Source of the DNA: Schmidtea polychroa
Lineage: Eukaryota
DNA length: 64,000 nucleotides
NCBI GenBank assembly: GCA_044892525.1
Contig: CM097885.1
Span: 72,416,001 to 72,480,000 of the forward strand
Direction: 5' to 3'
This document shows positions 23,045 to 48,386 of this stretch, piece after piece (within the stretch, counting starts at the first letter, position 1; each line of letters opens with the position of its first letter). The notes beneath the pieces are model-generated. The model saw only the letters and a list, made by a program, of their open reading frames with translations. It searched no databases and was not told the DNA's origin. A program made the translations under genes and the position numbers.

Positions 23045-23081
<37 letters not shown>

Positions 23082-24634: not shown

Positions 24635-24724
24635 GTAAGACTAAACCTTTTTCAAATTCTATTTTTACCACATTTCCATAATATTAAGACAACATTAAGT
24701 GTTTAATATTACACTATTCCTACA
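24634..24724 (-). repeat. putative 91-bp 3' LTR of gypsy element 1
   Basis: Minus strand TGTAGGA...TCTTACA (TG..CA ends, 6/7 terminal inverted repeat), preceded by purine tract GGTGGGGG. The 5' LTR is not visible for confirmation. Confidence 0.6.
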
Positions 24725-26202: not shown

Positions 26203-27420
26203 AGGATAAATTCCGACTAGCTGACCACATAACGAATACAGCTCTCTTCTTGAAAGCCCTTCATTTAATTCATTTATTCAAATATCGTTCGATCTTTTCC
26301 AATGTACTTCGTTATTCTTTCAAATTACATCAATACCTAATACTCTTACACTGAGAGTATTCTTGACCTTTTCTTCTTCTTTACATATCAAACCAAATTT
26401 ACGCATTTCTGCACTTACTTTACTTGCTTTAACTTTAGATTCATCTACGAATATATCGTCTATGTATGAACTTGTGCTATTCTTGATTGATTCATTGTTG
26501 TTCAATACTTTATTAACAATCTCTGTCATTATCGTTGGCGCGATATTCAATCCAAATCCCATTCTTGTAAGCCATATCTCTTCCCATTAACCATACAAGA
26601 TTGATATCGCCACATGCTTTTATCCACATGTATTTGCATATATGCATCAGATAAATCTAACATTGCAAATTCTTTACTTAAACATCTCCATGATCGTAAT
26701 TTTTCAGAACAAATATCTGCATTCCCACTATATACATCAATATATTTATTGATACTCCTAAGTCAAATACTGGACGCACTTTCGCTTTATTTAACTGAAT
26801 TATACCATAAATTGGTACTGATCCGATCGGTTTGCCCGTTGTTTTCTCGTCGTAATCAACAAGATAGCTGTTAGATATCCAAAAATTCAAGATACGCATC
26901 GTCTCCTGATCCTTACTACAATTATCATAAAAGTTTGAATTTCTATTAGGTAGAAATTTCGGCGGCTCTGACTTCCAATCCCATTTGACAATCCATTTCT
27001 CGTTTTCAAATCTCGCAGAGAAATTTTCCTTCAATATTTCTGACATACTACTACTAGAGCATGCTACGTGACAAGGTGCTTCTTCGCAACCGAATATGGC
27101 TTCTTTATTCAGTCGAACCCCACCAAACCTATTAATAGCATTCACTCCTAAAATTAAATCATAATTGGATACTAGTTTCGGGTATGTTAAACAATCAATA
27201 TTAAATAACTTATCTCCAACCGCTATATCAACTTTACTTCGCTCAGCATATATGATTGAACCATCAAGCATCGCTACCGCAGTCATAGATTTTCGTGGAT
27301 TTCCTTTTACTATAGTGGTAGTGCTGCCCGAATCAACTAAACATGCTTTTACATCACCATTTACTTTTAGAAGTCTCACATATTTACAATTCTTGGGGCC
27401 ACACCCGAGTCCACATGTGT

Positions 27421-27426
27421 GTAGCC
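27421..27426 (+). repeat. 6-bp target site duplication GTAGCC (left)
   Basis: Identical hexamer at 41601-41606. Confidence 0.97.
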
Positions 27427-28222
27427 AGTAGTGTGTATATAGCCCTAACCCAAACAACCCTCCCAACAAAAACATACCTCCATTACGCTTAAACTATTAG
27501 AAAACAACCCAAAACTTATACTTTTATAGTATTTTAACCCTATATTTTTGAAAACAACCACCCTTAATCTTTAAAGCCTCAAACTCAAAAGCTTCAAACT
27601 AAAAAGAGAATAGAAAAGAAAATGGCATTATGAAAAAGTTAGAGGGCTATTTGGGATAGGACTATATACACACTACTTTTGATCGCAATCAAACTCCGGA
27701 GTTGATCTTTATCAGATTATTGATTTTAAATTATATAAATTAAAAAATAAATGAAAAATAGTAAAACTGCTCTGAGGGGAGAGTGGTATTTTTTTTTTCA
27801 CTGTCCCCTCAACAGTTTTTTTGATCCGGATCATTTCAACCTCTTTCGTTTATCAAATCTCTTCTAATATACAAGCTGGCCAGACTCATACATCAGAATC
27901 AATCCGATAATAGCAGCACACCTTATTATTCGCTTCTCGCTCGAATACGATTTCATCGGCGTTTTAAGCGAACGATAATTACCGGTTCGCCACCATCACC
28001 CGTTTCAATAATTTTTTTTTCATATTTATGTTTAAAAAATAAAATAAATAAAATAAAATAAAAATAAATAAAATATACAACTACTTTATAAATCTAAGAT
28101 ACCCACACTATTATTTTCAAATTTTTAATATTATTTTATGTTGAAAAAAAACTAACCACAGTTAGGATTTGAACCACCATCCATTTGAACCACTGTGCCA
28201 GTCTAGCCCACTGCGCTATTAG
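27427..28222 (+). repeat. left terminal inverted repeat (~796 bp)
   Basis: Reverse complement of 40691-41600 apart from substitutions and one ~115-bp indel. Confidence 0.95.
28144..28222 (-). ncRNA. tRNA-like Pol III unit in left TIR
   Basis: Minus strand: A box TAGCGCAGTGG, B-box motifs GGTTCAAATGG and GGTTCAAATCC, then a run of Ts. Not a full cloverleaf. Confidence 0.55.
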
Positions 28223-28343
28223 ACTTTGGATTTTTATTTATAAAATTCTAAAAATTAGACTGTCACATTATGAAAATGAATAATATATAAATTTAAAAAA
28301 TAAAATGAAAACAGGGTATCCAATAAAAAATTTTTTTCTAAAA

Positions 28344-31300
28344 ATGAATTGTAATATTTGTAATAAAGTTTTTAAAAAAAAACTGGATTAATTTCTCACT
28401 TAAAATCGAAAGCTCATTTATTAAAAGAAAATATTCTTAATGATACAAATTCAAAACTTTGTCCTAAATGTAAAGGAAGATTTCTACATTCTGGATATAA
28501 TAAACATTTTGAAAATTGTATTGGGAAAAATAGAGAAATATTTACATGTCCTCATTGTAACTTTTCAACAAAACTAAATTTCTATTATTTAGAACATATA
28601 AAAGAATGTAAAAATAAAAAACAAAATTCTGACGATGAGGAATGTCATTCAGAAGGAGAACCTGATCATGTTGAAAGAGAAAAATATAACTGGGATAATT
28701 TTAATCATATAGATGAATTTCAATTAAAAATTAATGGACCTGCAACTCCTGGAGAATATATAAATAAAAATAAAAAAAATATTAAAATTTCTTTCACTGA
28801 AGCTTTAAAAAATTATAAACCGACAAGGTATAATGTTATAAAATATAAAATTATAATCAAAGCAAAATACTGGCGAGGAGCAGAAGAAAAGACAACACCC
28901 TTAGATGTTGAAATTGGAATACCTTTTAAATATTTATTTTCAACTAAAGGATTTGATAAAACCATCAAAGAAATAATTAAAGCAGCAGAAGCAAAACAAG
29001 AGGAAGTAGAAAATGAATTAGGAGATTCAAACTTAGTATTCAACTCTTTCCAAACTTTAGTGATTGATTATTGGAGAGGATTACCACCCAATCCTAAATC
29101 TTATATTCCTACACCCTTTAAATCTAAAAATGTTATAAACATACAGAATAATGATAACAAATGTTTCGTCTGGTCAATACTTGCACATTTACACCCTCAA
29201 GAATCAAACCCTCAAAGAGTTTCAAAATACAAACAATATGAAAATGAATTAATATTTCCCAAAGGATTCAAACATCCAATGAAACTAGAAGACATTCCAA
29301 AATTTGAAAGTTTAAATAATCTTAAAATTAATATTTATGAACGGGTTAAAGGGAAAAATATTAAAAGTAGAGAAATTATTCCAATTTACATTTCTGATAG
29401 TGGAACCGATAACCCTAGAGAAATATATCTTTTAATCTTGGAACAACAAAATAATCAACATTATGTTTTAATAAAAAACTTTCAAGCTTTTACATCACCA
29501 GAGAATCCAACTAGTGGAGGAGGAACATGTAAAAGATGTCTTCATTATTCAACAACTAAAAACTCTATGATTAAACATACAAGATTTTGTGAAAAAGATG
29601 AACCAGCTTTAATTAACATGCCTACAGATCCCAAGATGAATTTTAAAAACTTTTCAAATTTACTACAAACAGTAGGAGTGGTTTATGGAGACTTTGAATC
29701 TATAAATCGTAAACAAGATTTGGTTAACCAATATTTAAAAATAATAGAAAAAAATAAACTCATGGATTCCTGGAACTCCTCAGGAGAGAAGATGAAACCA
29801 GAGAGGATGAAAGCCTTTCTAAGAAAAAGGAATAAACCTAATAGTGTTAAAAAAACTAAACAATTACCATCTGCTTATAAATTATTATTTAAAAGTAATT
29901 ATCCTGAACTCATAGAATCTAGAGAATATACATTTCGAGGAATTTCAGAAACAGAAGTCTTGAATCATTTTACTAAAAGTATAAATGATCTAGAACATGA
30001 AATATTTAAAGTATTAAAAACAAACTATCCTCAAAATATTTCTAATCAACAACAACAAGAATATGAAAACACTTCCAACTGTTGGATGTGTAAACAACCA
30101 TTTGAAGAGTCTCCGAATATAAAAGTCCTCGATCATGATCATTTAAAAAAGGAAAATAATTATCGAGGAGCAGCTCATAAAAATTGCAATCTTAATTGTC
30201 ATACTCCTAAATTTGTACCTGTTATATTTCATAATCTTTTTGGTTATGACATACATCTATTTATTAAACATTTAGCAGAAAATGCTAAAAACTCTTTCAA
30301 AGTTATAGGACTTACAAAGGAAAAATATAAATCAATTGAATATGGAAAATTAAAATTTATAGACTCGTTAAACTTTCTCCAAATGTCTCTAGATACAGTA
30401 GCAAAAACAATGAAACCAGAAAATTTTAAAATCACTCGAGAATTCTTGGAAAAAAATAATATTCCTCCAGAAGAATATCCTACATGCTTAGCAAAAGGAA
30501 TATATCCTTATGACTATGTTGACTCGTTTGAAAAATATAATGAAACAAGTCTTCCTAGCCAAGAAGATTTCTCTTCACAACTTCAAAAATATCATATTAC
30601 AAATCAAGAATATTCTCGAGCAAATAAAATGTGGGAATTATTCAACTGTAAAACTTTAGGAGAATATACATGTATGTATTTATCCTTGGATGTTTATATT
30701 CTAGCAGATTGCTTTGAAGAATTTACAAAGTCTTCTGTTCTTAAACCTTACAATTATATAACAGCACCCTCTTTAGCTTGGGATACTTTATTATATACCA
30801 TTTGGACTTCAAATATAGAAGAAGGTGATAAAATTATAGATCTTTTAACTAACCTCGATATGTTTAACCAAATTAAAACAAACATTAGAGGAGGAGTCTC
30901 TTCAGTAATGGGGAATAGAGAAATAAAAGCTAGAAATGCAATAACTACTAGCAGAAGACTCTCTAAACACCCTAATGATCCATATATAAAAATTAACAAT
31001 GAGGAATTAAAAGAATTATTAGAAACAATGAAAAATCCTATATTTATACTTTATATAGATGCAACAGCTTTATATTCAGGAATTATGACTCAATATTTAC
31101 CAATGGGTAACTTTCATGAATTATATCCTTCAGAAGAATACCCTGAAGATTCCTCAGAAGAATCCTTAAAAGACCTTATAAAAGAAATACTTTCAACACC
31201 TAAAGATTCTCCAATAGGTTACTTTGTAGAATGTGACTTATTATATCCAGATGATATAAAATCAGGAACAAGATATTTCCCTTTAGCTCCTGTAAGAAGA

Positions 31301-32680
31301 AAGATTAATGTTAACGAACTTTCTGAATGGCAAATCTCACAAGATAAACCTCCAACAATGAAACTTCTTTGTGATCAAACAGATCGAAGGTTTTATCTTT
31401 GTCACTATAGACTCCTCCAATTTTATCTTTCACGAGGTATGATATTAAAAAAAGTTCATAGTGTCATAAGATTTAAACAAGCTCCATTCATGAAAGCTTT
31501 TATCGAGGAGAATATTAGGTGCCAAAACATTGCAAAAAGAGAAGGTAACCTTTTTAAAGATAATAATTATAAACTTTTAAACAATTCAGTCTTTGGGAAA
31601 ACAATGGAGAATGTTGATAAATATACTCATATTGAACTTTTAACTAATACTACCAAAGATATTAAGCGCTATAATCGTATGCTAGGAAAGCCTACATTTA
31701 AAAACGCACAAGTATTTTCTGAAAATCTTACTGCAATAGAACTAAAGAATTTTGAGAAAACATACAACAAACCAATATTTATAGGGTTTTCAATTTTAGA
31801 ACTTTCAAAATTACAAATGTATGAAACATATTATAACATCTTACAACCTATATATGGTTCTAATATATCAATGCATGCAATGGATACAGATTCAATGTTT
31901 TTAACAATAAGAACTCATGATTTACAAAGAGATATAGCCGAAAATCCTATACTTTCAAATTTAATAAATTCATCTGGAGAATTATTTTCGTTTAAAGATG
32001 AAAAACCTTTTACTCCTATAGAAAATGGAATATTTATTCGTTCTAAACAATATTCATACGAAACATTTAGAAACCCTGAATTTATAACTAGATCATTTAT
32101 ATTTAAAACTCCAGAAACAGAAGAAACCATTACACATAGATATCCTATATTTCCTAAAGAACCAGAGGGACAAGAAGAAAAACCTGTAAAGGATAACAGA
32201 TGTAAAGGAATACAGAAATCAGTTGCAAAGAATCTTTCTCATCAAGATTATATAGATACATTGAATCCAAATCATAAAGATAAAATTGATGAAATACATC
32301 AACTTAAAAGTGAAAACCATGATATTCACTTGATAGAATCTCAAAAAGTATCATTATCAAATTATGATGATAAAAGATTCATCCTAAGTGATTTAAAGAC
32401 AACTCTACCTATAGGAAATAATTTAATACCGATAATAAAAAATCTAGAAAAGTTGAATAAGTTATATGATACAAAAATTACTGATCTTGATATTTATAAT
32501 GTTGAAATCATTTATCCCGAGAGAGAAATCGAGAAGCCTTTATATTCTCAAGTTTTTAATCCTATATGTTTAGAACTTAAATATTTTAATACTGATCCTG
32601 AATATATAAAAGGTCTAAGTGATAAAGAATTTAAAGATCATAAATTAATGATTCAAAGGTTGGCTTTCAACGATATTTAA
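28344..32680 (+). CDS. polB: protein-primed family B DNA polymerase with N-terminal zinc fingers, OTU-like protease and endonuclease VII insertion (frameshift at 28374-28382)
   Basis: Exo motifs VYGDFES, FHNLFGYD, IDSLNF and LDVYILAD; Pol motifs YIDATALY, KLLNNSVFGK and MDTDS. The frame is open without a start codon from 28376 to the GTG at 29060; the ATG at 28344 is in another frame. Confidence 0.95.
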
Positions 32681-32758
32681 TTTTTTAATAATAAAATGTC
32701 GACAATTAATTTAAGCAACTATAGCAACCTGATCTACTTTTTTAAAAATACACCCATT

Positions 32759-33367
32759 TTATAAATAAGAATTCTTTAACCATTTCTCTCGTTTAATTTT
32801 TTTAGAATATTCATTAGTTATATCATTAGCGCTTTTTAATCTATTAATATTATTTTTAATATCTTGTATTATTTGATTTGATTTCATTATTTCATCATCA
32901 GTTAAGATTCCATCTTCCAAAGCTTTTAATTGAAATAAAAATAATTTAGAGATTCCAAATTCTATTGATAAACAAACTTCACGATATAAACATTTCTTTT
33001 TAGAAGTATAAGATAATGAAACTATTTCAGTTAGGAAACCATCAGCTACAGAAATACTTCCAAGTATTACTGGTGCAAGAGTAACAACTGGTAAAGTTAT
33101 AGGTAAAATAACTGTTAATATTGCAGATGCAAATCCTAAAGAATAACCTATAACTTTTAAAACTGTATTCCCTTTATTCCATCTATTTTTAATTTTTTTA
33201 TAATGCTTTAATAAATCTTGTAAATGTAAGGTTTCTGATTTAAATTCTTTTACTCTCATAATTTCAAGTTCTGTGGGAGCCGAGACCTTGGAACCTTTGT
33301 GACCTTCGGAATAATATCCTGATGATCTCACTTCTGGGTAAATTTTTTCTTCTCTTACTTCTTCCAT
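32759..33367 (-). CDS. Maverick protein with hydrophobic hairpin (putative membrane protein, 202 aa)
   Basis: VLKVIGYSLGFASAILTVILPITLPVVTLAPVILGSISVA hydrophobic stretch; KALEDGILTDDE tail. Confidence 0.75.
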   Translation of the reverse strand: MEEVREEKIYPEVRSSGYYSEGHKGSKVSAPTELEIMRVKEFKSETLHLQDLLKHYKKIKNRWNKGNTVLKVIGYSLGFASAILTVILPITLPVVTLAPVILGSISVADGFLTEIVSLSYTSKKKCLYREVCLSIEFGISKLFLFQLKALEDGILTDDEIMKSNQIIQDIKNNINRLKSANDITNEYSKKIKREKWLKNSYL

Positions 33368-33375
33368 TTTAATAA

Positions 33376-33687
33376 TTAAAAAAATAAGATTTTATTATCT
33401 GGTACCAATACTCGGATATCAAAAGAAACTCTTGTTGAGAGGATATCTTTATACAATTCTCTCAATGCTTTACGAACTTCATCAACATCAACCTTTTTTT
33501 CATAAAATATTAAATCTATATATTGTACAAGTGTGCTTTTAAAAATAATATTCTTACTTTTAACTTTATGTAGTCCATGTGAATGAGTATTAACATACCA
33601 ATCTCCGTGTGGTAAATCATAACTAGTCATTATAACATCACCCTTTTCAAGCTTACTATTATAATCACATTTCACAAACCATTTCAT
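33376..33687 (-). CDS. Maverick hypothetical protein (103 aa; may be the C-terminal head of the fibre gene)
   Basis: Intact ORF with ATGA overlap on the upstream stop; frame stays open 11 codons upstream of the ATG. Confidence 0.6.
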   Translation of the reverse strand: MKWFVKCDYNSKLEKGDVIMTSYDLPHGDWYVNTHSHGLHKVKSKNIIFKSTLVQYIDLIFYEKKVDVDEVRKALRELYKDILSTRVSFDIRVLVPDNKILFF

Positions 33688-34403
33688 TCTTTCATTATCA
33701 TCATCAAATAAAAATAAGGATCAATAATCTTTACAACCATAAAAACACCCCATTCTTTACTGTTTGTTGTTATTAAACTTGGTTCTATAAAATGTTTATA
33801 TGTATGGGGTAATAATGTTTTATTCTGTTCTAATTCAGCAGCTCTTTTTCTAATACTATGTGTGGTGTTAATGTGTGTTCCATGAGACTCTAAATTTGAA
33901 ATTCTTTTATTAAATGATGTAATCATCTCATTTATTATATTATATATTGTATTAAATTTAGTATTCATAATTTGTTTATCTTTAGAATTTAATATGCTAG
34001 TATTTAACTTTACAACTTGTTCAGTTAACAGACTTTGTAACTTGTCAAATTTATCATTAAATCGTTGTTCGATATTATTAAGCTTTGATTCCATCAAAGA
34101 ATTAACTTTGGATTCTATCAAGGTATCAATTTTTGTTGTTAATGAACTTTCAATTCTTGTTGTTGTTAAATCAGTATAATTTTTAACAACTACCTTTGCT
34201 TCCTCTACATATTTTTTATTAACTGCATCAAAATCATCAGTTGGTAAAGATAATTCTTTTATCTTGTGTCCATTTAAAATTAAATCTCCTTTCATTGAAT
34301 CACCTCTTTCATTAATATATCTCTTTTCTGTAAGAGATATAACATCTTCATCTTTTAATCCATCATTATATAATCCAAACTTATTATAATTAGCATAATT
34401 CAT
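33684..34403 (-). CDS. fibre/spike-like protein (239 aa)
   Basis: RGDSMKGDLILNGHKIKELSLPTDDFDAVNKKYVE resembles the GDxMxGxLxMxxxKIxxLxxPxxxxDAxxKxYV tail-fibre repeat, followed by a heptad-like helical segment. Confidence 0.6.
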   Translation of the reverse strand: MNYANYNKFGLYNDGLKDEDVISLTEKRYINERGDSMKGDLILNGHKIKELSLPTDDFDAVNKKYVEEAKVVVKNYTDLTTTRIESSLTTKIDTLIESKVNSLMESKLNNIEQRFNDKFDKLQSLLTEQVVKLNTSILNSKDKQIMNTKFNTIYNIINEMITSFNKRISNLESHGTHINTTHSIRKRAAELEQNKTLLPHTYKHFIEPSLITTNSKEWGVFMVVKIIDPYFYLMMIMKE

Positions 34404-34440
34404 TTTTATAGCAATAAAAATAAAATCCTTAGACGTCCCT

Positions 34441-35218
34441 CTAGACTTGTTTCAAATGTAAACACATTGAAATCTTTTCCCTATTAAAATTAATTAATTC
34501 CCCATTTTCATCAACAATTCTAAAACTAATATCCATTATATTTTTTCTACATAATGGTAAATAATTTGGGGGGTTCATTCTTTCAACCATTTTATATCCA
34601 ACTCGCACGGTATTAGAAGGAAAGGAATATAAAATATTTGCATGTTTACCATTATTGTATGATCCCATTATACAATCACACTCTATATTTATAGAATTTG
34701 TATTTGTTAATTGTATAATATATTTAGATTTAATAGGTGAAGGCGCTGTTGTTGATGGCATATATGTTTTAACTTCAAAACCTAAAATAGTATGAAAGAA
34801 ACTAGAAGTAGTAAAGTCCAACATTTTTTAAAGTTGCAATACATTTTGAAGTTTGTACATCTGCTTTTATTTCTACATTTCCATTTGTTTTTTTTAAAAT
34901 TGTTTTAGCTAAATCTGTTATTTCATATGATCCTGGTTCGATTGTTATAATGATGAATTCATTCATGGGTGGTGTGTCAGTCGCCTTAAGCATATTAAAT
35001 TTATTATTATTATTATTTATATTAAAAATAGTATTAAAACAGCTAAACCACAAGAGTCCTAATTCATAATTTAAATCTTGATCTAAATTTATTGAATCTT
35101 CAAAATTTATAGTAAAATCTGATTCTTTTGAATTTATTAATAAATTTCTTGAATATTTATGTGACATTATGTTTGCTATTTTTTTTAAATAATCTTCCGG
35201 AAGGTTGCGAAGCTCCAT
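34441..35218 (-). CDS. minor capsid protein (penton, single jelly roll), split by frameshift near 34824
   Basis: N-part: DFTINFEDSINLD, YELGL, ITIEPGSYEITDL. C-part: DFT..FHTILGF, INIECDCIMGSY, ILYSF, ISFRIVDENGELINFNRE. Positioned next to the protease. Confidence 0.85.
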
Positions 35219-35649
35219 TTTAATAGTAGAGATTTTAAATCATTATAAATTTCTTGGATTAAGGAAGTGAAACCTTCTCCTTTGGATTTATTCAATCTAT
35301 ACAAAACATATAAGCTTAAAATACCACATATTTTAGTATTATTAGGTTGAACTTGTAAAGAATTAAAAGTGTAGTCCTTCGAGAGATAGTCTTCAACTTC
35401 TTTAGTAGGTTTAATCCCAAAAGAATCAAAGTATATAGATTTATTATATATACAAACCCAATGAGATCCTTTTTCATTTGAATTTTGATAATTGATTATT
35501 ATATTATTCTCTTTCAGACTCGACAATTCATCATTCATTAATATTTTTATTTTTAAATTTAAATAATTTGCATAATCTTTTAAATCAAAATTTGTTTTTG
35601 CATTTATTCCAAATGTTTTTAAAAAATCTAATATTGAAGGACAAGTCAT
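35185..35649 (-). CDS. adenain-like cysteine maturation protease (154 aa)
   Basis: GSHWVC (His), YFDSFG (Asp), QVQ...ICG (oxyanion Gln and catalytic Cys). Confidence 0.92.
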   Translation of the reverse strand: MTCPSILDFLKTFGINAKTNFDLKDYANYLNLKIKILMNDELSSLKENNIIINYQNSNEKGSHWVCIYNKSIYFDSFGIKPTKEVEDYLSKDYTFNSLQVQPNNTKICGILSLYVLYRLNKSKGEGFTSLIQEIYNDLKSLLLKWSFATFRKII

Positions 35650-35657
35650 TTTGTATT

Positions 35658-36539
35658 TTATAACTTCGTATATTTATTAAATTTATCTTTTGAAATTATT
35701 CCTTGTTTTAACAAATCTTTAGAAATCTTTAAAATATCAGAATCTAAATTATTATGTCCTGCTTTCCTTGCAGATAATAGTTTTCTTAATTCAATAAAAA
35801 GATTGATTGGGTTTGGTTCAACCAATCCCTCACCCTCTGTAACAACATAACCCTTTTCATTTTTATTTAAATAATTCTTTAAATCTTGAATATATTTTGC
35901 TTTAGAACTAGCTCTTATTAATCTTATTAAATTTAAATATTTTTTAATTTCTTCAACATCATCTGAAGAATATCCACAAAGTAATCTATAAAAATCATCT
36001 GTAAATTCAAAGTCTAAATATTCATTATTATAAACATTTTGTGAATGAATACGTGATTTATTTTCTGAATTTGAATATAAAGTAAAGTTTTGTTTATTAA
36101 TTGTTATTATTTGATATCCTTCAGTATTAGTATTAAATGTGGGTCTAATTGAAGGAGGTAAATCATCTCTAATTTTAGGATCAACTTTAAGAGGTTTTGT
36201 TTTGAAAAACATTTCTTCTTCTTCCACATTAGAAATTCTTCTGCGTTTTCTTTGATTTCTTTCAGAATGACTTTCAGGATGGTTTTCACTGGATTCTTTT
36301 TCTTTATCCTGCCACTCTAGTTCTTTTATTTTTTGTTTTTTATCTTCTAACTCTTTAAATTTTGCTTGCTCATTGAAATCTTCCAACTCTTTTATAGCTT
36401 TAATTGTTGGCCCCTGTTGTTGTGTTATTACCTCATTTAATATTATAGATTCAGCATGTTGAGTTGTATTTTTTTTATTATATTTATCTTGTTCTGATTG
36501 TAATTTTTTTAAAAGTGCTAATCTTTCTTCATATACCAT
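35658..36539 (-). CDS. conserved Maverick protein of unknown function (293 aa)
   Basis: Intact ORF; C-terminal LRKLLSARKAGHNNL...LLKQGIIS resembles a recurrent Polinton helical motif; GEG|L candidate cleavage site. Confidence 0.7.
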   Translation of the reverse strand: MVYEERLALLKKLQSEQDKYNKKNTTQHAESIILNEVITQQQGPTIKAIKELEDFNEQAKFKELEDKKQKIKELEWQDKEKESSENHPESHSERNQRKRRRISNVEEEEMFFKTKPLKVDPKIRDDLPPSIRPTFNTNTEGYQIITINKQNFTLYSNSENKSRIHSQNVYNNEYLDFEFTDDFYRLLCGYSSDDVEEIKKYLNLIRLIRASSKAKYIQDLKNYLNKNEKGYVVTEGEGLVEPNPINLFIELRKLLSARKAGHNNLDSDILKISKDLLKQGIISKDKFNKYTKL

Positions 36540-36578
36540 TTTAATGGTATCAAAAATGGTATCATAGTTCGAAGGGCT

Positions 36579-37121
36579 TCAAGTATAATCCTTTACCATT
36601 TTTAGTTTTACAAAGCATCCATTCTTTAAAGATTTACATATTTTTTTTAAATCTTCTTTATCTTTTGAAGATAAAGATTCAGATGTAGAAATTTGATTTT
36701 TTAAAAATTCATTTAAACCTCTACCTTTATAAGGATCAAGATAGAGACCTTTGCCCTGAGACTTTTGCCGACTCCCCTCATATGGATTAAGATAGAGACC
36801 CTTTCCAACGGACACTCCCCCTTTAGCTTGCCCTACCTTCTTCATTGAATTGATTTCAGTTTGTAGTTTTTCTTTTTCTAGGTCTGTCTTTTGAGATTCT
36901 TTAGCTTTTTGAACTGTAGTTGCAATTCCTCCAGCTATTCCAGCAGCACCTGATAAACCAGCAATGATTGCAGGTATTAAAGCAGCTAATGGAAGAACGC
37001 CACCTTCTTTAGCTTCGTGGAGCTTCGCTCTAACTTGTTCTTTTACATGTTTTCCAATAAAATATTTTTTACCATCAATTACTACTGATTTATTTTTATT
37101 TGAATTTATTAATTCTTGCAA
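36579..37121 (-). CDS. putative virion core / membrane-lytic precursor (180 aa)
   Basis: EGG|VLPLAALIPAIIAGLSGAAGIAGGIATTVQKAK Gly/Ala-rich hydrophobic helix; repeated GKG|LYLxPY and GRG|L sites. Confidence 0.7.
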   Translation of the reverse strand: MQELINSNKNKSVVIDGKKYFIGKHVKEQVRAKLHEAKEGGVLPLAALIPAIIAGLSGAAGIAGGIATTVQKAKESQKTDLEKEKLQTEINSMKKVGQAKGGVSVGKGLYLNPYEGSRQKSQGKGLYLDPYKGRGLNEFLKNQISTSESLSSKDKEDLKKICKSLKNGCFVKLKMVKDYT

Positions 37122-37154
37122 AGATTCTTCAGTTGTTATTTTATAATAAATAAA

Positions 37155-37964
37155 ATGGATGTACGAAGTCCAATAATTTGGAAACCAATTTTAAATAGAC
37201 ATAAGAGTAAATTTAATAATAAAGTATTTCCTGATAATTTTAGATTATTAATTGTTGGTTCTTCTGGATGTGGAAAGAATGTACTTGTTTTGAAAATGTT
37301 GCTTGAAGATGATTTTTTAGATTATAATAATTTTATCTTTTACTCTACAACCATAAATCAACCAGAATTACAACTTTTGAAATGTGGATTTGAAAATAAA
37401 TTAACTAAAAAAGCTATAATTGATATTTTTAAAAATCAACATAGATGTCCTGAAGAAGTTTTTCAACCTTGTGATATGGTTGATTGGTATAAGGAAAAGA
37501 TTTTAGAATCAGATATTAGTAATAAAAATGATTATATTTGTGAAGATCAGGGGCAGGAGGCAATTCAAGTTTTATTCTCTAATAAACCTGAAGATGTTTT
37601 ACATTGTGATTTACTTCCTAAAGATAAAAAGAATCTAGTTATATTTGATGATGTTGTCAACATGAAAAATCAAGAGATTCAAAAGAGTTACTTTACACGA
37701 GGTCGACATAATAATTGTAATGTTATTTATATATCTCAAACTTATTATGCTTTAGATAAAAACTCTATAAGAAATAATTCTAATTGTTTTATATTTTTTA
37801 AATTAGATCGCCGTGATAAGAATATGATTTATAATGACTTATTTTCAAATGTTGAACCTGATAAGAATATGTTTGATATGTTTGTTGATAATCATTGGAA
37901 AGAAAAATATAATTATATTTATTTGGATAGAGAAGAAGCTGAAATATGGAAAAGTTTGTTTTAG
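37155..37964 (+). CDS. A32/FtsK-like genome packaging ATPase
   Basis: Walker A GSSGCGKN, Walker B LVIFDD, RGRHNN..YISQ motif; ATG at 37155 in AAAATG context. Confidence 0.95.
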   Translation: MDVRSPIIWKPILNRHKSKFNNKVFPDNFRLLIVGSSGCGKNVLVLKMLLEDDFLDYNNFIFYSTTINQPELQLLKCGFENKLTKKAIIDIFKNQHRCPEEVFQPCDMVDWYKEKILESDISNKNDYICEDQGQEAIQVLFSNKPEDVLHCDLLPKDKKNLVIFDDVVNMKNQEIQKSYFTRGRHNNCNVIYISQTYYALDKNSIRNNSNCFIFFKLDRRDKNMIYNDLFSNVEPDKNMFDMFVDNHWKEKYNYIYLDREEAEIWKSLF

Positions 37965-37975
37965 GGCTTGTCGAC

Positions 37976-39340
37976 TTAAAAATCTGTTTTCTGTAACTCA
38001 TTATTATAAAATCTACCTAATATTTTTTCATTATTTAAATCAATGATGCTATATGTTATTGGAGTTGTATAATTTATTTTATTTATAATAAAAATTTCAT
38101 TTGTCCATTTTGCTGTGCATCCTTTTTCAAATTTATTTTTGTATTTAAATATTCTTACTCGGTCACCAATTTTAAACTTTGGTTTTTCAATAACATCATT
38201 TTCAATATTTACCACTTTAATGGTTTCAGGATTTATGGAAGCATTTAAAGGTGTTGATTTTATAGAACTATGTACATCATTATTATATTCATTTACAATC
38301 TTTTGTAACAATTCATTGTTCCATTTTTGTTTTCCAATAGCAGTAAAATATTTCCACATTTTATTTTTTAATGTTCTATTTAATCTTTCAACTACGACTG
38401 CTTTTCCTTCGTTTTCTGTTGAATATAATTTAATATCATTTTCATTTAAAAACTTTGTAAAAACTTTGTTATAAAATTCTGTTCCTTTATCACACCATAA
38501 ATATTTTGGAATTCTTTGATGTTGTTCAAATATATTTTCAAATGCTTCTGTAATAGAAAATCCTGTTTTATTTTCTAAACATCTTGCAAAAGCAAATCTT
38601 GTATATAAATCTATTACTGTTAAAATTATTTTATATTTTTCAGGGTCTGATGATTTGGTTGGCATAAAGACTAAATCTGCAGACCATGTTTGATCTTTTT
38701 CATGTACTTGAACTTTTAAATATTTTTTATTTTTTCTAAATTCATGGTGTAATTCATTAGCATATTTTATTTCTGATTCTATTGGGGTTAATAAACTAGT
38801 CTTGGATATATTCTCGAGGGATCTTTCAGCATCTGCTTGTTCAATAATCTTTTTATTAGCAACATCTTTTGCCATCCTTGGTAAACTAGCACCTATGAAA
38901 ATCTTACCTTTCATGGCTAATTTAACTAGAGCTCTTTGAATCTTTTCTTGGGTTGATGGATTTTGGATACTATTTAAATCATGTATTAAATTCACATCTG
39001 CAACATGTCTATCTCTAAGATCTTCTGAGTTGTAAGCAATATCATGTTTTAAAGCTGCTTGATCAATTCTATTTATTGGTTCTTCTCCTTGTTTAGGATT
39101 ATTATTTTCATCTAATCTAATATCTAATCTTGTTCCTGGTCCAGTATAGTTGTGTTTAAATAAATGTCTTTCACCTGGATATTTTTCTGTAGTAAAAGGT
39201 TTTAATATTGAAGATATTGTTTTTGAAGATTGTAGATCACCTCCTGTATGTTTTTTAGTTTTTAAATGACTTGCTTTATGGTGTTTTGTAACTTGACAAT
39301 TACAAGTTTCGCATCTCCAATAGGGTTTATTTAAAGACAT
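37976..39340 (-). CDS. zinc finger - PLA2 - retroviral-like DDE integrase fusion (454 aa)
   Basis: CETC..H..H finger; YTGPGT, AALKHDIAY and HVAD (PLA2); WSAD (D222), WCD (D284), VVER (E318); SH3-like FKIGDRVRI tail; no chromodomain. Confidence 0.93.
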   Translation of the reverse strand: MSLNKPYWRCETCNCQVTKHHKASHLKTKKHTGGDLQSSKTISSILKPFTTEKYPGERHLFKHNYTGPGTRLDIRLDENNNPKQGEEPINRIDQAALKHDIAYNSEDLRDRHVADVNLIHDLNSIQNPSTQEKIQRALVKLAMKGKIFIGASLPRMAKDVANKKIIEQADAERSLENISKTSLLTPIESEIKYANELHHEFRKNKKYLKVQVHEKDQTWSADLVFMPTKSSDPEKYKIILTVIDLYTRFAFARCLENKTGFSITEAFENIFEQHQRIPKYLWCDKGTEFYNKVFTKFLNENDIKLYSTENEGKAVVVERLNRTLKNKMWKYFTAIGKQKWNNELLQKIVNEYNNDVHSSIKSTPLNASINPETIKVVNIENDVIEKPKFKIGDRVRIFKYKNKFEKGCTAKWTNEIFIINKINYTTPITYSIIDLNNEKILGRFYNNELQKTDF

Positions 39341-39357
39341 TTTAAAATGTTAAAATA

Positions 39358-40650
39358 TTAAGAATCTCCCCTAACATTTTCGATTATTGAAATCTTTCCA
39401 CCATATAATTTCATTTCTATTTTCTTTTCTTCTAATATTAATGTATATACTTTAGCTTTAAAATTAGAATCCTTTGTTATATGAAGTGTAACATCAACAT
39501 TATTTATGGCTAGGCGATCATCTTGGTCTGAAACATTTATACAAAATATAGAATATAAATTTTTGAAATCTTCTAAACTTAATTGCGGTTCAACTTTGAA
39601 ATCATAACATGTTTCAATATAATTTAGATATGGGAATATGTTTTCATTATTTTCAATATTAAATTCCATTCTATTTATTGGATAATAAGAACTATTTAAT
39701 TGAATTTGGATTGTTTTTAAATTATCAACTCCAATCTTTTGAATAAACAAGTTGTTATTTTTTTGGAAAGATGAATCTACTTCTTTGAATCCAATCAAGA
39801 TATATCTTGGTCGGTATGCTAAATTTGCTACCTTTATAGAATATGTTGAACCCTCTGTCATACTAAATTCACTACAGATTCTATTTAAATAATTTACATT
39901 TATAGACTTGTTGGAATTTAATCTTTCAAGGAGTTTGATTTCGGAATGTGGATTTAATGTCCATTCAGGTATATGCAATTCAAGTGTTGATATTTTTAAT
40001 TTAGCTGTTGTATCTGCAGCTCCATAGAACAATCTTTTATCACCTTCTACTCTATTACAAACTAATTCTATAAAAACATTATGAAGTATACGGTTATAGT
40101 TTTGAATGAATCCAAATAAGTGTTTTAATTTAAAATAACCTTCAAATTTTTTAGATTTATAAAGTTCAGCTCTTTTATAGTAACCATAATTTATATCTAA
40201 ACCATCTTTATCCAAATCTCCTTTATTAACATCAGGAATCCAGCCTGTTAATTCACCATATTCATTTTTATAATCACAACCAGTCAAAATAAAATTTAAC
40301 ATTGTAGAATATACTCCCGGATGCAAAACAGTTTCAATTTCTGATGATCCTAGTTTTAATCTCATGTTGGAGAATAAATTTGGAAAGAAATTCTTTTCTA
40401 GGGTTATATCTTTGTTTGCTTCAATTTCTAATTCGATTTTATAATATAATTTGGCATTACAAATATCTATTGGGTTTGATGTTTGAAGAGATTGAAAAAC
40501 TATATCACCCCTACGATTTAAGTTTGCAATAGATCCTGAAGTTGGGGATATTTTAAGTACATCATTTTTTTTGATTTCATGAGTAAATTCTTTATTATAA
40601 TCAAGATTTAATTTATTTTTTTCTTGAATTTTAAGATTTATATTATTCAT
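39358..40650 (-). CDS. major capsid protein (double jelly roll, 430 aa)
   Basis: Size and position, beta-rich composition, LFSNMRLKLGSSEIE, RPRYILIGF, QIQLNSSYYP and LYSIFCINVS segments typical of Polinton MCP. Confidence 0.88.
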   Translation of the reverse strand: MNNINLKIQEKNKLNLDYNKEFTHEIKKNDVLKISPTSGSIANLNRRGDIVFQSLQTSNPIDICNAKLYYKIELEIEANKDITLEKNFFPNLFSNMRLKLGSSEIETVLHPGVYSTMLNFILTGCDYKNEYGELTGWIPDVNKGDLDKDGLDINYGYYKRAELYKSKKFEGYFKLKHLFGFIQNYNRILHNVFIELVCNRVEGDKRLFYGAADTTAKLKISTLELHIPEWTLNPHSEIKLLERLNSNKSINVNYLNRICSEFSMTEGSTYSIKVANLAYRPRYILIGFKEVDSSFQKNNNLFIQKIGVDNLKTIQIQLNSSYYPINRMEFNIENNENIFPYLNYIETCYDFKVEPQLSLEDFKNLYSIFCINVSDQDDRLAINNVDVTLHITKDSNFKAKVYTLILEEKKIEMKLYGGKISIIENVRGDS

Positions 40651-40690
40651 TTTTATAATAAAAATTTAAAAAATGACAAAAATCTGAAAC

Positions 40691-40769
40691 CTGATAGCGC
40701 AGTGGGCTAGACTGGCACAGTGGTTCAAATGGATAGTGGTTCAAATCCTAACTGTGGTTAGTTTTTTTT
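40691..40769 (+). ncRNA. tRNA-like Pol III unit in right TIR
   Basis: TAGCGCAGTGG (40695), GGTTCAAATGG, GGTTCAAATCC, then T-run from 40762. Confidence 0.55.
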
Positions 40770-41600
40770 CAACATAAAATAATATTAAAAATTTGAAAAT
40801 AATAGTGTCAGTATCTTAGATTTATAAAGTAGTTGTATATTTTATTTATTTTATTTATTTTATTAATTAATTAATTTTTAAACATAAATATGAAAAAAAA
40901 AAATATTGAAACGGGTGTGGTGGCGAACCGGTAATTATCGCCACCAGTCTTTCGAACACCCCCGGATCGATTCTATAATGTGCACATTTATTTTTCAGTT
41001 GTTTTCGAACCTCTTTCGGATTCACTTTCGAATTCATTTGTACTTTCGAGCAGCACGCTTAAAACGCCGATGAAATCGTATTCGAGGGAGAAGCGAATAA
41101 TAAGGTGTGCTGCTATTATCGGATTGATTCTGATGTATGAGTCTGGCCAGCTTGTATATTAGAAGAGATTTGATAAACGAAAGAGGTTGAAATGATCCGG
41201 ATCAAAAAAACCGTTGAGGGGACAGTGAAAAAAAAAAATACCACTCTCTTCTCAGAGCAGTTTTACTATTTTTCATTTATTTTTTAATTTATATAATTTA
41301 AAATCAATAATCTGATAAAGATCAACTCCGGAGTTTGATTGCGATCAAAAGTAGTGTGTATATAGCCCTATCCCAAATAGCCCTCTAACTTTTTCATAAT
41401 GCCATTTTCTTTTCTATTCTCTTTTTAGTTTGAAGCTTTTGAGTTTGAGGCTTTAAAGATTAAGGGTGGTTGTTTTCAAAAATATAGGGTTAAAATACTA
41501 TAAATGTATAAGTTTTGGGTTGTTTTCTAATGGTTTAAGCGTAATGGAGGTATGTTTTTGTTGGGAGGGTTGTGTTGGTTGGGTATATATACACACTACT
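40691..41600 (-). repeat. right terminal inverted repeat (~910 bp)
   Basis: Reverse complement of the left TIR, with extra segment 40941-41055. Confidence 0.95.
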
Positions 41601-41633
41601 GTAGCCCCTTGATCTTTTTCCGACTTGTAAAAC
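41601..41633 (-). mobile_element. TSD plus upstream continuation of gypsy element 1 (runs into N gap)
   Basis: Removing the Maverick and one TSD restores an open frame FTSRKKIKGLHTCGLGCGPKNCKYVRLL. Confidence 0.7.
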
Positions 41634-42155: not shown

Positions 42156-42615
42156 GATTTGACAGTGATTTTCATAGAATTCTCACTGATGCCTTTGTGT
42201 AATCTGTCATTCCATCTTCCAAAAAAGTATAAAAGCCAACCAAGTGACAATCATGACGATACTCACAAAGATTCATATTCATCTGATCACAAAGTCAATT
42301 CAGAATACACTCTACATAGGTCGTCTCTTCTCCACGAAATTGGGATGTATTTGCATTATATCAGCATATGTATTCTTGTGGTTTTCATGGTAGAGTTGAT
42401 CTTGCGGATTTTGTGCATTGGGGAAAGATTTTTCAAGAAAAAAGTTGAAGTAAATGTTTACTTGTATTAATGATCACAGCTAACCATTTAGATGTTTGAT
42501 GGGACGATCATTGTTACATCGTTTATGGCCGATATCATATTTGTTCAATTGAAATCTGATCAAATCTCAGTAATGGTCGTATTCTTGCTATGGAGAATTG
42601 TCAGATTGATCAATG
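42156..42615 (+). CDS. HVCN1: voltage-gated proton channel Hv1-like, S1-S4 exons (42-nt intron 42450-42491)
   Basis: S1 D-x6-E (DLTVIFIE), S2 HYISICILVVFMVELILRI, FFKKKVE|MFDGTIIVTSFMADI (S3) and LWRIVRLING (S4). The GT-AG phase-0 intron joins the frames. First and last exons unresolved. Confidence 0.8.
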
Positions 42616-43308
42616 GTAATTATATATTCCCTTTTGCCAGTTGCGATAGTTATAAATGCGGTCAAATTATAACCTTTAGCGCGCTACCGGACATAATAGT
42701 TTTTTACAATTCATCTTTTTCAATAATAATATCTCATCTCAAATAATTTGGTTGCCAAATATAATGGCTTCAATCATGAAATAGTTCTTTTCAATTTAAT
42801 ACGAAATCTAACTGATGTTGTAATCTTTCCGTTGTATATCTTTCTCTCGCGGTTTATTTGCAGTAAAATCTTACAACCTTTATTTCTTTTTGGTAATAAT
42901 AGTCAAATATTTATTAAAGAAAAAGCTCAATACATACTGATGGGGTGTTATATCTTCATGTCTGCCCTTTTAACGATGCTGGCATCACTAAGAAACTATG
43001 AATATTTATTTTTAAAATGCTTAATTCATGCACATTCTTGAAAATTTGAAACATAGCTGAATAAATGTAAATTTGTTTTTGGATTTTTAATTTTAAATAT
43101 TAAAATTAAATTTTTAAAATATGATTTCTCTAGAATTTTTAATTTAAATTAATTCATCAAGAACAACAAAAAGGTAAAAAAAATTTAATTTGAAAAATAA
43201 TACTATCATCTGGGTTTTGACTAGATGGAAAAGGATGGTTTCATAATCGAAAATTCTCAATTGTAAAGATTTGCAGTGAATATTTACAATTCTTATTCAT
43301 TTACAATA

Positions 43309-43697: not shown

Positions 43698-44798
43698 TAT
43701 TATGCTACCAAAATACTATGAATATTTATAAAGATATCAGTATAATTGTAGTATGAATTTTAAATTCTTTAAATAAAATCAAATAAAATTCAATAAATTC
43801 CAAATAAAATAACCTATTTAGGAATTATTAAAAATTTATTTAATAAAATAATTATAAAAAAGCGCTACTCAACATTCGTTTAACGATATTTTTCGACAAT
43901 TTCCCTCGCATCATCAAGTAGAATAGAAAATTATTATTATTATTAGTGAGTGTAAATTGTGTTTGGAAAGAAATGTGTAGAGCCCAGCCGAGTCTCCTTT
44001 AAAAAATATACTGTCTCGGGACACCTGGGGTGATTGTGTGTTAGCTGAAATTGCTTTTACAATAAAAATAAATATTCAATTAACAAGTAAAATAACCACA
44101 ATAAAAATTAATTTAACTCTTGTAACGTTTATTCAATGATAAGAAAAAATTTACAAACCTCTACGAAACCTTGAGGGGATTGAATGTAGTAATAGTTTAT
44201 CTTGGAATTGAATTGACATTTGTTGTTGATAATTGTTGACAAGGTTAAAAATTAATTTTCAGCCTTTTATCCGCAAATAATTAACTGATTTGCTCTTATC
44301 CAAGGGATAGGCATTAGTAAAATAGAAATTGTGGAATTGAAAATGTAAAAGACAAAGTTTTCATATAACAACAATAGTTATTTAATATTAATTTTTTTTA
44401 ATTATTTTTTAAATTAACAATTCTCTATAGTAATAATTTACTATAGAGAATTACCCTATATAGTTTAATATATATTTTATACATAGTAAACACCAGTAAC
44501 AAAACAGTAATAAATCCTAATTAAAAATAAAAAGTTAACACCACACTATAAATTTTATTGACAAATTTTATTAAATTTTCTTTTTTAAAAAAAATATTTT
44601 TAACATTTTAATTTAAATAATAAATCAATTTTCAATTTAAAATATTTTGAAATATTTTAATCATAATTTTTTGATAAAAATTATATTAAAATTAAATTAA
44701 AATAAAACACTAAATTACGAAACCAAGCAATTTGACGGATTTCAAAATTTTCAAAAATCGAAATAAATTATGAAAAATGTTTATCTATGTTCGTAATA

Positions 44799-47129
44799 CA
44801 CCTATCCCCCGATTTACACGGTAGATACGTTCCTGAGAAAAACGTGTAAATCGAAAATATAAAATTTTCAAGTCAAAACCGTGTAAATCGAAAAGCTTGC
44901 AGAAAATGCATAATTTTGCTATTTAACAGTTGTGATTTTTTTCAATATTTTTAGGTGTACACAGAAATAAAAATAAAATGCATTGACAGATTAAAATATG
45001 TAATATATTACGGAAACACTGTTTTTTTATTTAATTACAATACATTAAACAGAAGAACAAAAAATAAAACCAATGGTATTTTATTATCCTTCATCACTAT
45101 CAGAAATTACTCTCATTCTTTTTTTTTGAATCGAAGGTTGGAATTCATTTTCATCACTCGAAGTTATTTGCGCCGATTCGATGTTTGAAGCAGAAATATT
45201 TACATTCTGAGAGGTGGTAATAAAATCGGTTATTAACAATTGCTTCGAATTTTTTGTAAGATCTTTGTAAACTTCTTCATATTGAGCCAAGCAGCGATTT
45301 ATGTCACGTTGAAATCGTAAAGCCCTTTCTACGTTTGTGTCATTTTGTATAAAATGATTACCCAGCTTTCTTCCCAATGCGAGTCCTTCGCGGATGACTT
45401 TAGCAGTGAATGTTACTGGTACTAATTCCTCTTCATCAGATTTTTCAGACTCACTTTCGCAAACTAAGTTAACTAAATCATCCTCACTTAGTTCTTTATC
45501 AACCATTAACTCTGCGATATCATCATCAGTAAAATCATCAAAACCTTCTACGCCCAATGAATGCGCCATCTGTACTATCTGCGAATATTCATCATTTAAC
45601 GTTGAAATGGAATGTTCATTTTTGACTACATTTGGCTACAATTTTTTCCAACAGCTATTGAGCGTTGTTTGCTTAATCGCAGTGTATGATAAGGCGATAT
45701 GCTTCACACAATCTAATATTGTAAAATTTTTCCAAGCACTAATAACTGTTAAAGATTCATTTTTCTCCATTTGTTCCAAAATATATGTAAAGGCTCGTTT
45801 TATGTACAAAGCTTTAAAAGTAGAAATTATGCCTTGGTCCAATGGTTGTAATAATGAAGTTGTATTTTTTGGTAAAAATTTTACTTCAACATTCTCATAT
45901 TCTAAATCTTGTGGGTGACCCGGCGCATTGTCAATTAACAAAAGCACTTTAAAAGGCAATCCCTTTGAACCTAAATATTTTTTGGCATCTGGGATAAAAC
46001 ATTCATGAAACCATTCAGTAAACATTGCAGCAGTAACCCACGCTTTCTTATTAGCCCTCCAATAAACGGGAAGATTTTTGATGTTTACTCCTTTAAAGGC
46101 ACGGGGCATTTTTGATTTGTTAATCACTAATGGTTTCATAATATAATCGCTAATATAATATCATAATATAATTGCTACAGAAAAGAATTGTTATGCGATC
46201 TTTTGCTGCTTTATGACCACTAGCCGATTTATAAAATTTTGAGACATAAGTCCTTTCAGGCATTTTTTTCCAGAATAACCCTGACTCATCAGCATTGAAA
46301 ACCTGATCAGGGGTGTATGAATTGTCGTTAATAATTTCTCCAAAATTTGCTGGATATTCTTGAGCTGCATCTACGTCGCCAGAAGCCAGTTCACCTTTTA
46401 ATTTTAAGCTGTGTAAAGAATGTCTTATTTTAAATCTTTCAAACCAGCCATGACTTGCCAAAAAATTTGGCTTCTTTTCAGTTGAAGAAGAAGATGGTAA
46501 TTGCTCTACAATCTTTTCGTAAATTCGTACTGCTTTATTTGTTATAGCGGCCGTATCAATGGGTACTCTTTTTTGTGTTTGATCTTCTATCCAAAGCATT
46601 AACGCTTTCTCCATTTTTTCCATTGCGATATTTCTGGTGTATGATGTTGTGCCCATACTCGTGGTATTGCCAGCTGCAACACTCTTTCTAATTGTGTTTT
46701 CATTTGTTCTAATGGTTCTTATTGTAGCTTCGTTCATGCTATATGATTTTGCAACATCTACTACTCTATCTCCCTTTCGTAAGCGATCCAAAATTTCGAT
46801 TTTAGTTTCTAAAGAAATAACTTTTCTTTTAACTTCTTTCGACATTATAAGCCTATAATTTTTTTTAATTTATGTTAATTTATAATATGTAATCTAAATT
46901 ATGCACTCACTTTAAACTTTAAAACTTTAATTTTATGCGAAGAAATACAGACACAGTGTGCATGTGCAGCAAGTCAGCACATAAGCTCAGGATTCCCTGT
47001 GAGATGTGTACACAGCGCACGTGTTCAAACACAGTAGCATTTAGTAGAGTGCGATAAATAAATTATTTGGAAAACCGTGTAAAAGCGAAAACGTGTAAAA
47101 CAAGTACCGTGTAAATCGGGGGATAGGTG
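44799..47129 (-). mobile_element. Tigger/pogo DNA transposon, full length, disrupted transposase
   Basis: 25-bp TIR CACCTATCCCCCGATTTACACGGTA, TA TSD, subterminal CGTGTAAATCGAAAA repeats. CENP-B HTH, VFNADESGLFWK, LLIDNAPGH and LQPLDQG are split over three ORFs (46150-46845, 45636-46139, 45084-45569). Confidence 0.95.
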
Positions 47130-48386
47130 TAATAACATTTTTCAATTAATTTTGCTTTAAAATTCGCATTTAATGTATTAGTCAATATAACGAGTTCAGT
47201 GAAAATAAGTATGCAGTTTTGTCCGTAAATCTACTGTTAAAAAGAAAATAATTATTCGAAAAAAGATAAAACGAACTAAATTCACGAAAAAACAATAATT
47301 TGAATAAAAGGAATAAGAATGTATCACTAAAATCGTTGATGCCGTATAACGGCGATGTACTAGACATTGATTTGTCCATGAATTCTGTGAAGAGTAAATG
47401 AACTCAAATCCCATTTATCAATTGTAAGCTCAAATAGTGATTTTTTTACTTAAATTTTAAAATAAAAAATTAAACCAGCAAAATTGTATGAAAAATAAAA
47501 TCCGTCAATAATGGAGACAGGAAATTTTTTATTATAAGATTTATATAAAAATCTCAACGGCGTTTTTATTTCCAATATATGTGATGATAAATTTGAATAA
47601 AAAAATATTTTTTAATTAAATTTAATTTCTTTTTTTTGTTTTGATTATTAATTTTACGACTGGGCGCTGATAAAGTAATCTAGAAAGAGTGGTAAAGTAG
47701 AAAATAAAATAATTTATTAATAAACATAGTTAATTACAAATACGAATATTAATTAAATTTTTTTATATTAAACATCGTAGAATAATCGTTAATTTTTTGG
47801 TTTTTTATTTCTTTTATATTATTTTATATTTCTCATAACATTTTCAAGTTTTTGAACAACTCAGTGTTGAAAATTCGTGAAATAAATAAAACAAAATATT
47901 TGTCGATAATTCGAAAAGGAATGAAGTTGAAGGAAATAGAAAATAGGTAATTGATGAAAAAAGATAAAAAATTAATTTACCGGTAATATTTAATTTTCAA
48001 ATTAAATTGTTAAATCTGGGAAATTAAAAATTTTTTTTTTCAAATTTCACCACTGATTTCTTTTCCATTGACATTGTATTTATAAAAAGCTTGACTATGA
48101 ATCAATAAATATAGATATCGATGATTTTGATATTCACGAATTTTCGGCACTGCCTTTTTCAAGCCACTTAAAAAAATTCACTGATTTACTGATTCAAGCT
48201 TTTTAATAAATATTTAAAAAAATTTTATTAAAGTTTACTATCCATATAAATTGAGAATGCACTCTTGTACATGTGATATATAATCAGTCGTCGATTATGA
48301 CTTATTATTTGGCATGTAAATAAATAAAGGCTTTTTTATAAAATCTATTGTCAAAAAAGGATATCAAACAAAAAATAACACTAGGT

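Follow-up and report, generated by a model that had tools for sequence, protein, structure and literature searches.

A single uninterrupted frame within a Maverick/Polinton element of Schmidtea polychroa joins a parvovirus-type phospholipase A2 (PLA2) module to a DDE integrase. The fusion is real and is read in one frame, and it represents a selected, widespread, and apparently undescribed architecture in a known element class. The window referred to below is the whole stretch of 64,000 nucleotides that was analysed. With a probability of roughly 60%, reasoning from sequence and analogy, we consider the lipase to be a virion entry protein on which the integrase would enter the particle, with the protease of the element freeing both.

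A Pfam scan of the ORF placed both domains above their cut-offs, PF08398 at aa 59–140 (E 2.5e-9) and rve (PF00665) at aa 213–306 (E 1.3e-11), which bore out the original prediction that one ORF unites a C2H2 finger, a PLA2, and a DDE integrase. The finger is seen as the pattern C-x2-C-x11-H-x5-H near the N-terminus; Pfam gave no match for it in the window protein, and sub-threshold zf-U1 matches appeared in 3 of 19 relatives scanned. The Ca-loop, the His-Asp dyad, and the second Asp of a parvovirus-type PLA2 are all present, and the DDE triad is intact, as had been claimed. The chromodomain had also been called missing, and Pfam indeed returned none in the fusion protein at E ≤ 1; its absence is nevertheless separate from the fusion, as four fused homologues keep one.

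An AlphaFold model of the fusion protein, based on 91 sequences, reached a pLDDT of 85.3 and a pTM of 0.57. The finger was modelled as beta-beta-alpha at aa 7–27 and disorder at aa 31–41 and 176–183, while the PLA2 and integrase domains were confident. Comparison with Foldseek gave foamy-virus integrase as the top solved structural match of this model (E 3.7e-15). Folded alone, the PLA2 module was nearest to models of densovirus VP1 and entomopoxvirus PLA2-like proteins (best E 3e-4). Its top match among solved structures was the rice PLA2 2wg7 (Z 7.2, rmsd 5.3, 97 aligned residues), a middling score under the Z 8 caution level, and a PDB sequence search with the PLA2 yielded just capsid matches at E 0.2.

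Table 1. Window positions of the fusion gene, its parts, and the enclosing Maverick element.
Feature	Position	Strand	Basis
Finger-PLA2-integrase ORF, 454 aa, single uninterrupted frame	37976..39340	-	ORF call, Pfam
C2H2 (U1/matrin-like) finger, aa 7-31	39248..39322	-	Sequence pattern, structure model
G33-G34-D35, candidate protease site; segment predicted to be disordered	39236..39244	-	Conservation; pLDDT<50 at aa 31-41; cleavage inferred
Parvovirus-type phospholipase A2 module, aa 35-152	38885..39238	-	Pfam, structure comparison, conservation
PLA2 Ca loop YTGPGT, aa 65-70	39131..39148	-	
PLA2 H99-D100	39041..39046	-	
PLA2 D115	38996..38998	-	
G150-A151-S152, end motif of PLA2 module; candidate second protease site or helix cap	38885..38893	-	
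Linker, aa 153-192; neither length nor sequence is constant; -1 junction of relatives sits here	38765..38884	-	
rve integrase, aa 193-454; D222, D284, E318; beta-rich C-terminal domain; without chromodomain	37979..38764	-	
Complete Maverick/Polinton copy, 14,174 bp, ends AGTAGT...ACTACT	27427..41600	.	
Long terminal inverted repeats of the Maverick	about 27427-28235 and 40678-41600		
6-bp target-site duplication GTAGCC	left copy 27421..27426, right copy 41601-41606	+ (left copy)	
Major capsid, double jelly-roll	39358..40650	-	PF21738, E 9.6e-26
Protein-primed polymerase pPolB	29279..32680	+	PF03175, E 5.7e-15
A32-type packaging ATPase	37155..37964	+	PF04665, E 2e-8
Maturation cysteine protease (H63, D75, Q101, C108), ASFV pS273R/adenain family	35185..35649	-	
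Putative minor capsid gene, split into two ORFs by a frameshift in the window copy	34441..35218	-	
Open frame like the core-protein ('X') half of PLA2X genes, as excerpted from the published set	36579..37130	-	

The element that encloses the fusion gene has the features of a Maverick: matches to PF03175 and PF00665, terminal inverted repeats ending in (AGT)2, and a 6-bp target-site duplication. The end motif at its termini is also the one given in passages of PMC8097293. Genes for the capsid, the packaging ATPase, and the cysteine protease were all found, and the major capsid gene immediately precedes the fusion gene, both being on the same strand. The family profile of the protease had pS273R (E 5.8e-11) and adenain (E 1.2e-9) as its best solved relatives. 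No second PLA2 was detected by Pfam among 12 ORFs of the element. The X-like frame carries xGG and GxG motifs together with GKGLYL repeats, and in the window copy there is no ATG before its hydrophobic part.

The stretch that we take to be the minor capsid gene owes this label to its likeness to typical Maverick minor capsids rather than to a library match. Its two halves match the N- and C-terminal parts of one 278-aa ORF in locus L052, and most scored sister copies have frame-keeping lengths here. Sister identity in the region is 87–98%, which makes it far more variable than the PLA2-integrase junction. The broken gene marks the window copy as slightly decayed, and it is still a member of the Mavericks.

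A search of the same genome with the fusion protein returned 94 scored matches at 93 places; 92 were full-length and 95–100% identical, and 80 of these 92 lacked an internal stop. This match list favours intact copies, so a foreign PLA2-only query was used too, for which 104 of 150 matches fell within open frames of at least 428 aa. At the DNA level, every one of the 40 scored junction matches measured 240–241 nt, and contigs of four public runs listed no frame-changing indel in the junction, although no single listed piece spanned the whole ORF. Checked in this way against sister copies and contigs of public runs, the junction held, and an assembly artefact is ruled out. A rare or copy-specific fusion was likewise rejected on the own-genome copies, the database matches, and the junction lengths.

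To describe selection, pN/pS was calculated from 27 intact sisters (of 29 fetched, picked by similarity). Shared variants, meaning those in at least two copies and including changes private to the window copy, gave 0.09 for the PLA2, 0.13 for the finger, 0.23 for the integrase, and 0.30 for the linker. Singletons in the same 27 copies gave 0.57 for the PLA2 and 0.93 for the integrase. The PLA2 and integrase domains are both under purifying selection. No subfamily with a hidden frameshift turned up in this genome: 20 short-frame copies, chosen among the short-frame matches of the PLA2-only search, displayed scattered stops and shifts in both directions. As a side observation, first-look candidates numbered 9817 for the fusion protein and 2396 for the PLA2 alone, figures that are not copy numbers but point to a large young expansion.

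The fusion architecture is widespread and common in databases. Both Pfam domains occurred in 102 of the 120 best database matches, at 38–92% identity, and our own profiles found both in 24 of 148 further 50%-cluster representatives; the notion of a one-off architecture was thereby overturned. Of the 132 chains that cover both domains, 129–132 keep H99, D100, Y103, D115, and the triad D222/D284/E318. The N-terminal zinc module is more changeable, being a C2H2 finger in 14/132, a C4 ribbon (DUF5679) in 13/132, or absent, and linker length has a median of 14 aa and reaches 73 aa. The coral Oculina patagonica provided the only named fused match, and the PLA2 module was found in two short proteins of Lottia gigantea. 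On a viral contig (L051:9926-10498), a zinc ribbon-PLA2 protein ends at the Gly motif, with no integrase match in the 13-kb locus. Another contig, binned in a Bacteroidota genome (L152) and probably a mis-binned viral piece, has a PLA2-like ORF near an ATPase-like ORF.

Relatives likely join the PLA2 and the integrase via -1 ribosomal frameshifting, judging from the arrangement of their genes. Foreign loci that contain an integrase N-terminus were sorted by the position of their PLA2: of 97 such loci, 16 are in-frame fusions, 27 carry the PLA2 immediately upstream but in another frame, 14 carry it elsewhere, and 40 showed none, many of these being short. Since the two genes are unlinked in 14 of the 97, the link is not essential to Mavericks. 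Of the 27 upstream loci, 17 have an offset of -1 and 6 an offset of +1, while the other 4 have an in-frame stop; where both domains were intact (17 abutting loci), the offset was -1 in 15, +1 in one, and an in-frame stop in one. Pairwise identity among the 17 -1 loci whose integrase is intact is 44–79%. This probable second route lends independent support to the idea that the integrase travels with a virion entry lipase, because it couples the same two genes by other means.

The overlap contains an in-register slippery heptamer in 14 of the 17 -1 loci compared with 0.5 expected (0 of 200,000 simulations), an expectation that is too low because the background came from domain cores, where A is scarcer than in the Lys-rich linker. 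The heptamer A AAA AAC accounts for 8 of these 14 sites. A strong hairpin (z below -2.7) follows a few bases 3' of the heptamer in 6 of the 14 and none does so in the other 8. Four related loci have a common stem of 12 pairs, in which 47 of the 48 cells pair and the loops differ in length; covariation in these four sequences was not above shuffles. The linker of the window copy holds no stable RNA structure (z 0.07). Loci L114, L098, and L169 all showed the -1 layout with an A-rich heptamer; the first two are contig-end loci picked by tree position, and the third was picked by an integrase-start pattern, a scan for which returned 17 viral loci, two of which matched an integrase. Separately, among the close stand-alone PLA2s (P0317 and several among P0320-P0337), seven end in G-A-G-N, where a G GGA AAC slippery site before the stop is possible. 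A search of viral contigs for the DNA of close stand-alone PLA2s ending G-A-G-N or G-A-S-V found none, and genome contigs gave one distant unlinked PLA2.

A FastTree phylogeny of the integrase core placed the window integrase in a well-supported clade (0.999) of 91 fused and 8 integrase-only chains, without -1 members. The same clade received an SH-aLRT of 100 in a quick IQ-TREE of 80 rows, for which about a quarter of the fused proteins were kept. Outside it, fused and -1 states interleave, with 10 changes in all, at least three of them forced by strong branches, and the unlinked PLA2/integrase forms make up one group.

We propose that the integrase is translated in one frame behind the PLA2 module as a Gag-Pol-like precursor, which would be packaged with the genome, riding on the lipase. 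The N-terminal zinc module may hold this precursor on the genome, and the element's own glycine-directed protease would cut after GG and possibly at G-x-G/S. The membrane-breaching lipase and the integrase would then be delivered together into the next cell. The -1 forms would produce mostly lipase and a small share of lipase-integrase, and in-frame lineages such as the window copy would produce the two at 1:1. The observed basis for the proposal is the single frame, the intact active sites, the selection, the virion gene set, and the second joining route in relatives. The lipase is presumed active and virion-borne because of parvovirus VP1 and of a putative lipase from a different family in Polinton-like virus particles, described in passages of 10.1101/2022.07.28.501842. 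Passages of PMC4642659 already propose that the PLA2 of Polintons is likely packed in virions for endosome escape, so this part of the original prediction was not new; its suggested coupling of membrane escape and integration makes better sense as joint delivery of the two activities than as a mechanistic connection between them. On a larger scale, a broad Maverick branch may have converged on a Gag-Pol strategy in which the integrase is made only as an extension of the entry lipase, by frameshift or fusion with repeated switches, and is released by the protease in the particle. We lean towards this wider view only narrowly.

Alternatively, the fusion or frameshift could be an expression device only: the integrase, needing neither a promoter nor a start codon of its own, would be translated from a capsid-side message and act, unpackaged, in the producing cell. 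The place of the fusion gene right behind the major capsid gene would fit this, as would the -1 integrases, which mostly lack an ATG (in 14 of 17 loci the first catalytic Asp is not preceded by a Met), and the massive expansion in one genome, at 93 places at least, needs no particle. However, in the expanding lineages purifying selection is stronger on the PLA2 than on the integrase, a pattern that indicates a functional route through particles, and any upstream gene would do for such a device, yet the PLA2 is the partner in several clades. We regard a pure expression device as unlikely.

If the precursor is packaged and processed as we favour, the Gly-rich segments on either side of the PLA2 would be the candidate cleavage sites. 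The enzyme pS273R cleaves behind Gly-Gly pairs, and xGG and xGxG are the sites of adenain. Ahead of the PLA2, the G-G-D motif is conserved as G33 in 109/132, G34 in 85/132, and D35 in 107/132 fused homologues; behind it, the K-x3-G-x-G motif has K146 in 130/132, G150 in 130/132, and G152 in 104/132, with S152 in 12/132. The proposed TGG/D and IGA/S sites are both there as letters, the latter being a degenerate K-x3-G-x-G that is perhaps structural. Cleavage at the C-side motif appears less certain than at GG-D because this motif ends stand-alone PLA2 proteins, which stop 1–3 residues after it, caps a helix in the AlphaFold model, and is mostly G-A-S, with some G-x-G, in copies of the window genome. 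At position 148 most family members have Lys, whereas adenain prefers a hydrophobic residue at P4. Both kinds of Gly motif occur in the X-like core frame of the window element and in the published PLA2X sequences in the excerpted supplement of PMC11071296. In one subfamily (L006, L007, L177, L184), a short in-frame insertion after G-x-G adds a second Gly motif.

The same C-side motif, G-A-S instead of G-x-G in most window-genome copies and a helix cap in the model, would also suit a protein that is never cut, with PLA2 and finger staying attached to the integrase as its lasting N-terminal domain, for instance to contact membranes or the nuclear envelope or to substitute for the chromodomain that the window fusion lacks. 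Such a permanent domain sits poorly with the chromodomain retained in four fused homologues, with the poor conservation of linker length, and with a whole-model pTM of only 0.57 against a pLDDT of 85, and the frameshift forms imply free PLA2 as the main product. We consider an uncut protein very unlikely.

It could also be argued that the -1 forms are unprogrammed, arising from base loss in A-runs of decayed or mis-assembled fusions or from short introns, and that the in-frame fusion alone is real. An A7 run minus one A is exactly the in-register A AAA AAC, and Illumina assembly of multi-copy elements can yield false frameshifts according to passages of PMC10120064. The loci L077, L078, and L103 are close but differ in state (fused, stopped, and -1), and therefore some -1 calls are probably decay. 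As a general cause, random A-run loss is nevertheless unlikely, because 29 homopolymer runs of at least 6 in the same genes are unshifted; in addition, 10 of the 15 fused junctions shown have no A-run of at least 5. The predominance of -1 among the intact loci and the recurrence of the same junction among such divergent elements also speak against this, as do the stops directly 3' of the heptamer in L095, L129, and L098, whereas broken copies in the window genome shift at scattered places and in both directions. Phase-compatible GT..AG pairs of at least 30 nt are found in 14 of the 17 loci, but they are absent in three, their donors are mostly Gly codons, their acceptors are purine-rich, and they share no common length. 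As an account of the -1 forms, artefact or splicing is very unlikely.

In the Gag-Pol precursor of retroviruses and LTR retrotransposons, the integrase is C-terminal and is joined in frame or via a -1 slippery site. Our preferred reading of a lipase-borne integrase resembles this arrangement in that a DDE integrase of the same fold is C-terminal to a particle protein, both joining routes are seen, and a viral protease is on hand. In contrast, the element is a DNA virus with a protein-primed polymerase and no reverse transcriptase, its carrier is a lipase and not Gag, its protease is a separate cysteine-protease gene, and no HHCC domain was seen. The PLA2 unique to parvovirus VP1 is alike in its PF08398 match, Ca-loop, and HD motifs, and densovirus VP1 is a structural neighbour; the parvovirus domain is joined to the capsid protein, whereas the window PLA2, with predicted lipase activity, is joined to the integrase.

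Maverick/Polinton elements (Polintoviricetes), among them the Alpha adintoviruses with PLA2X (Starrett et al. 2021, PMC8502044), share with the window element pPolB, rve, the A32 ATPase, and the double jelly-roll capsid, as well as the cysteine protease, AGT-repeat termini, the 6-bp target-site duplication, and a parvovirus-type PLA2. Their PLA2 is joined to a pX-like domain (PLA2X) and their integrase is separate and carries a chromodomain (passages of PMC8502044 and PMC11071296). In the window element, unlike Alpha adintoviruses or group 2, the PLA2 is separate from the X-like frame and continues into the integrase, and the chromodomain is absent. Phospholipase is described as common in group 2 Mavericks in passages of 10.64898/2026.06.19.733378, and packaging of the integrase in mavirus particles is cited in part of a review (PMC6723459). 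Passages of Buck et al. 2024 (PMC11071296) predict -1 slippery sites in adintovirus Penton and Hexon-Adenain, genes other than the two joined here, with no mention there of slippage between PLA2 and integrase. No description of a PLA2-integrase fusion or frameshift was found in the freely available passages searched; it is absent from passages of PMC3671162, PMC5803895, PMC12567637, PMC10748475, PMC11131425, PMC11161782, and 10.64898/2026.10.13.758929.

If true, the proposed packaging would provide genetic evidence that the virions of animal Mavericks contain the integrase and that integration takes place on entry. The maintenance of a lipase-integrase precursor through two genetic routes, over lineages 40–60% apart, bears on whether Mavericks integrate from the particle in a retrovirus-like manner. 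It would also imply that many Maverick integrases have been mis-started by gene callers, and that a frameshift at the PLA2-integrase junction is not decay by default.

Several other features were observed in the window. The Maverick sits in the pol region of an LTR retrotransposon (24709-27426, - strand) with RVT_1, RVT_3, and rve matches, and an ORF at 26678-27475 begins within the Maverick inverted repeat and is a chimeric reading. A non-autonomous fold-back element of about 2.4 kb with nested inverted repeats lies at 21494-23923. At 44794-47134 and 48814-50454 are a DNA transposon of the pogo/Tigger type (DDE_1, HTH_Tnp_Tc5), which has inverted repeats of 30 bp, and a hAT-type element that has decayed. 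Two short, exon-like ORFs at 42189-42746 (+ strand) gave no Pfam match, and we presume from their appearance that they resemble exons of a voltage-gated proton-channel gene.
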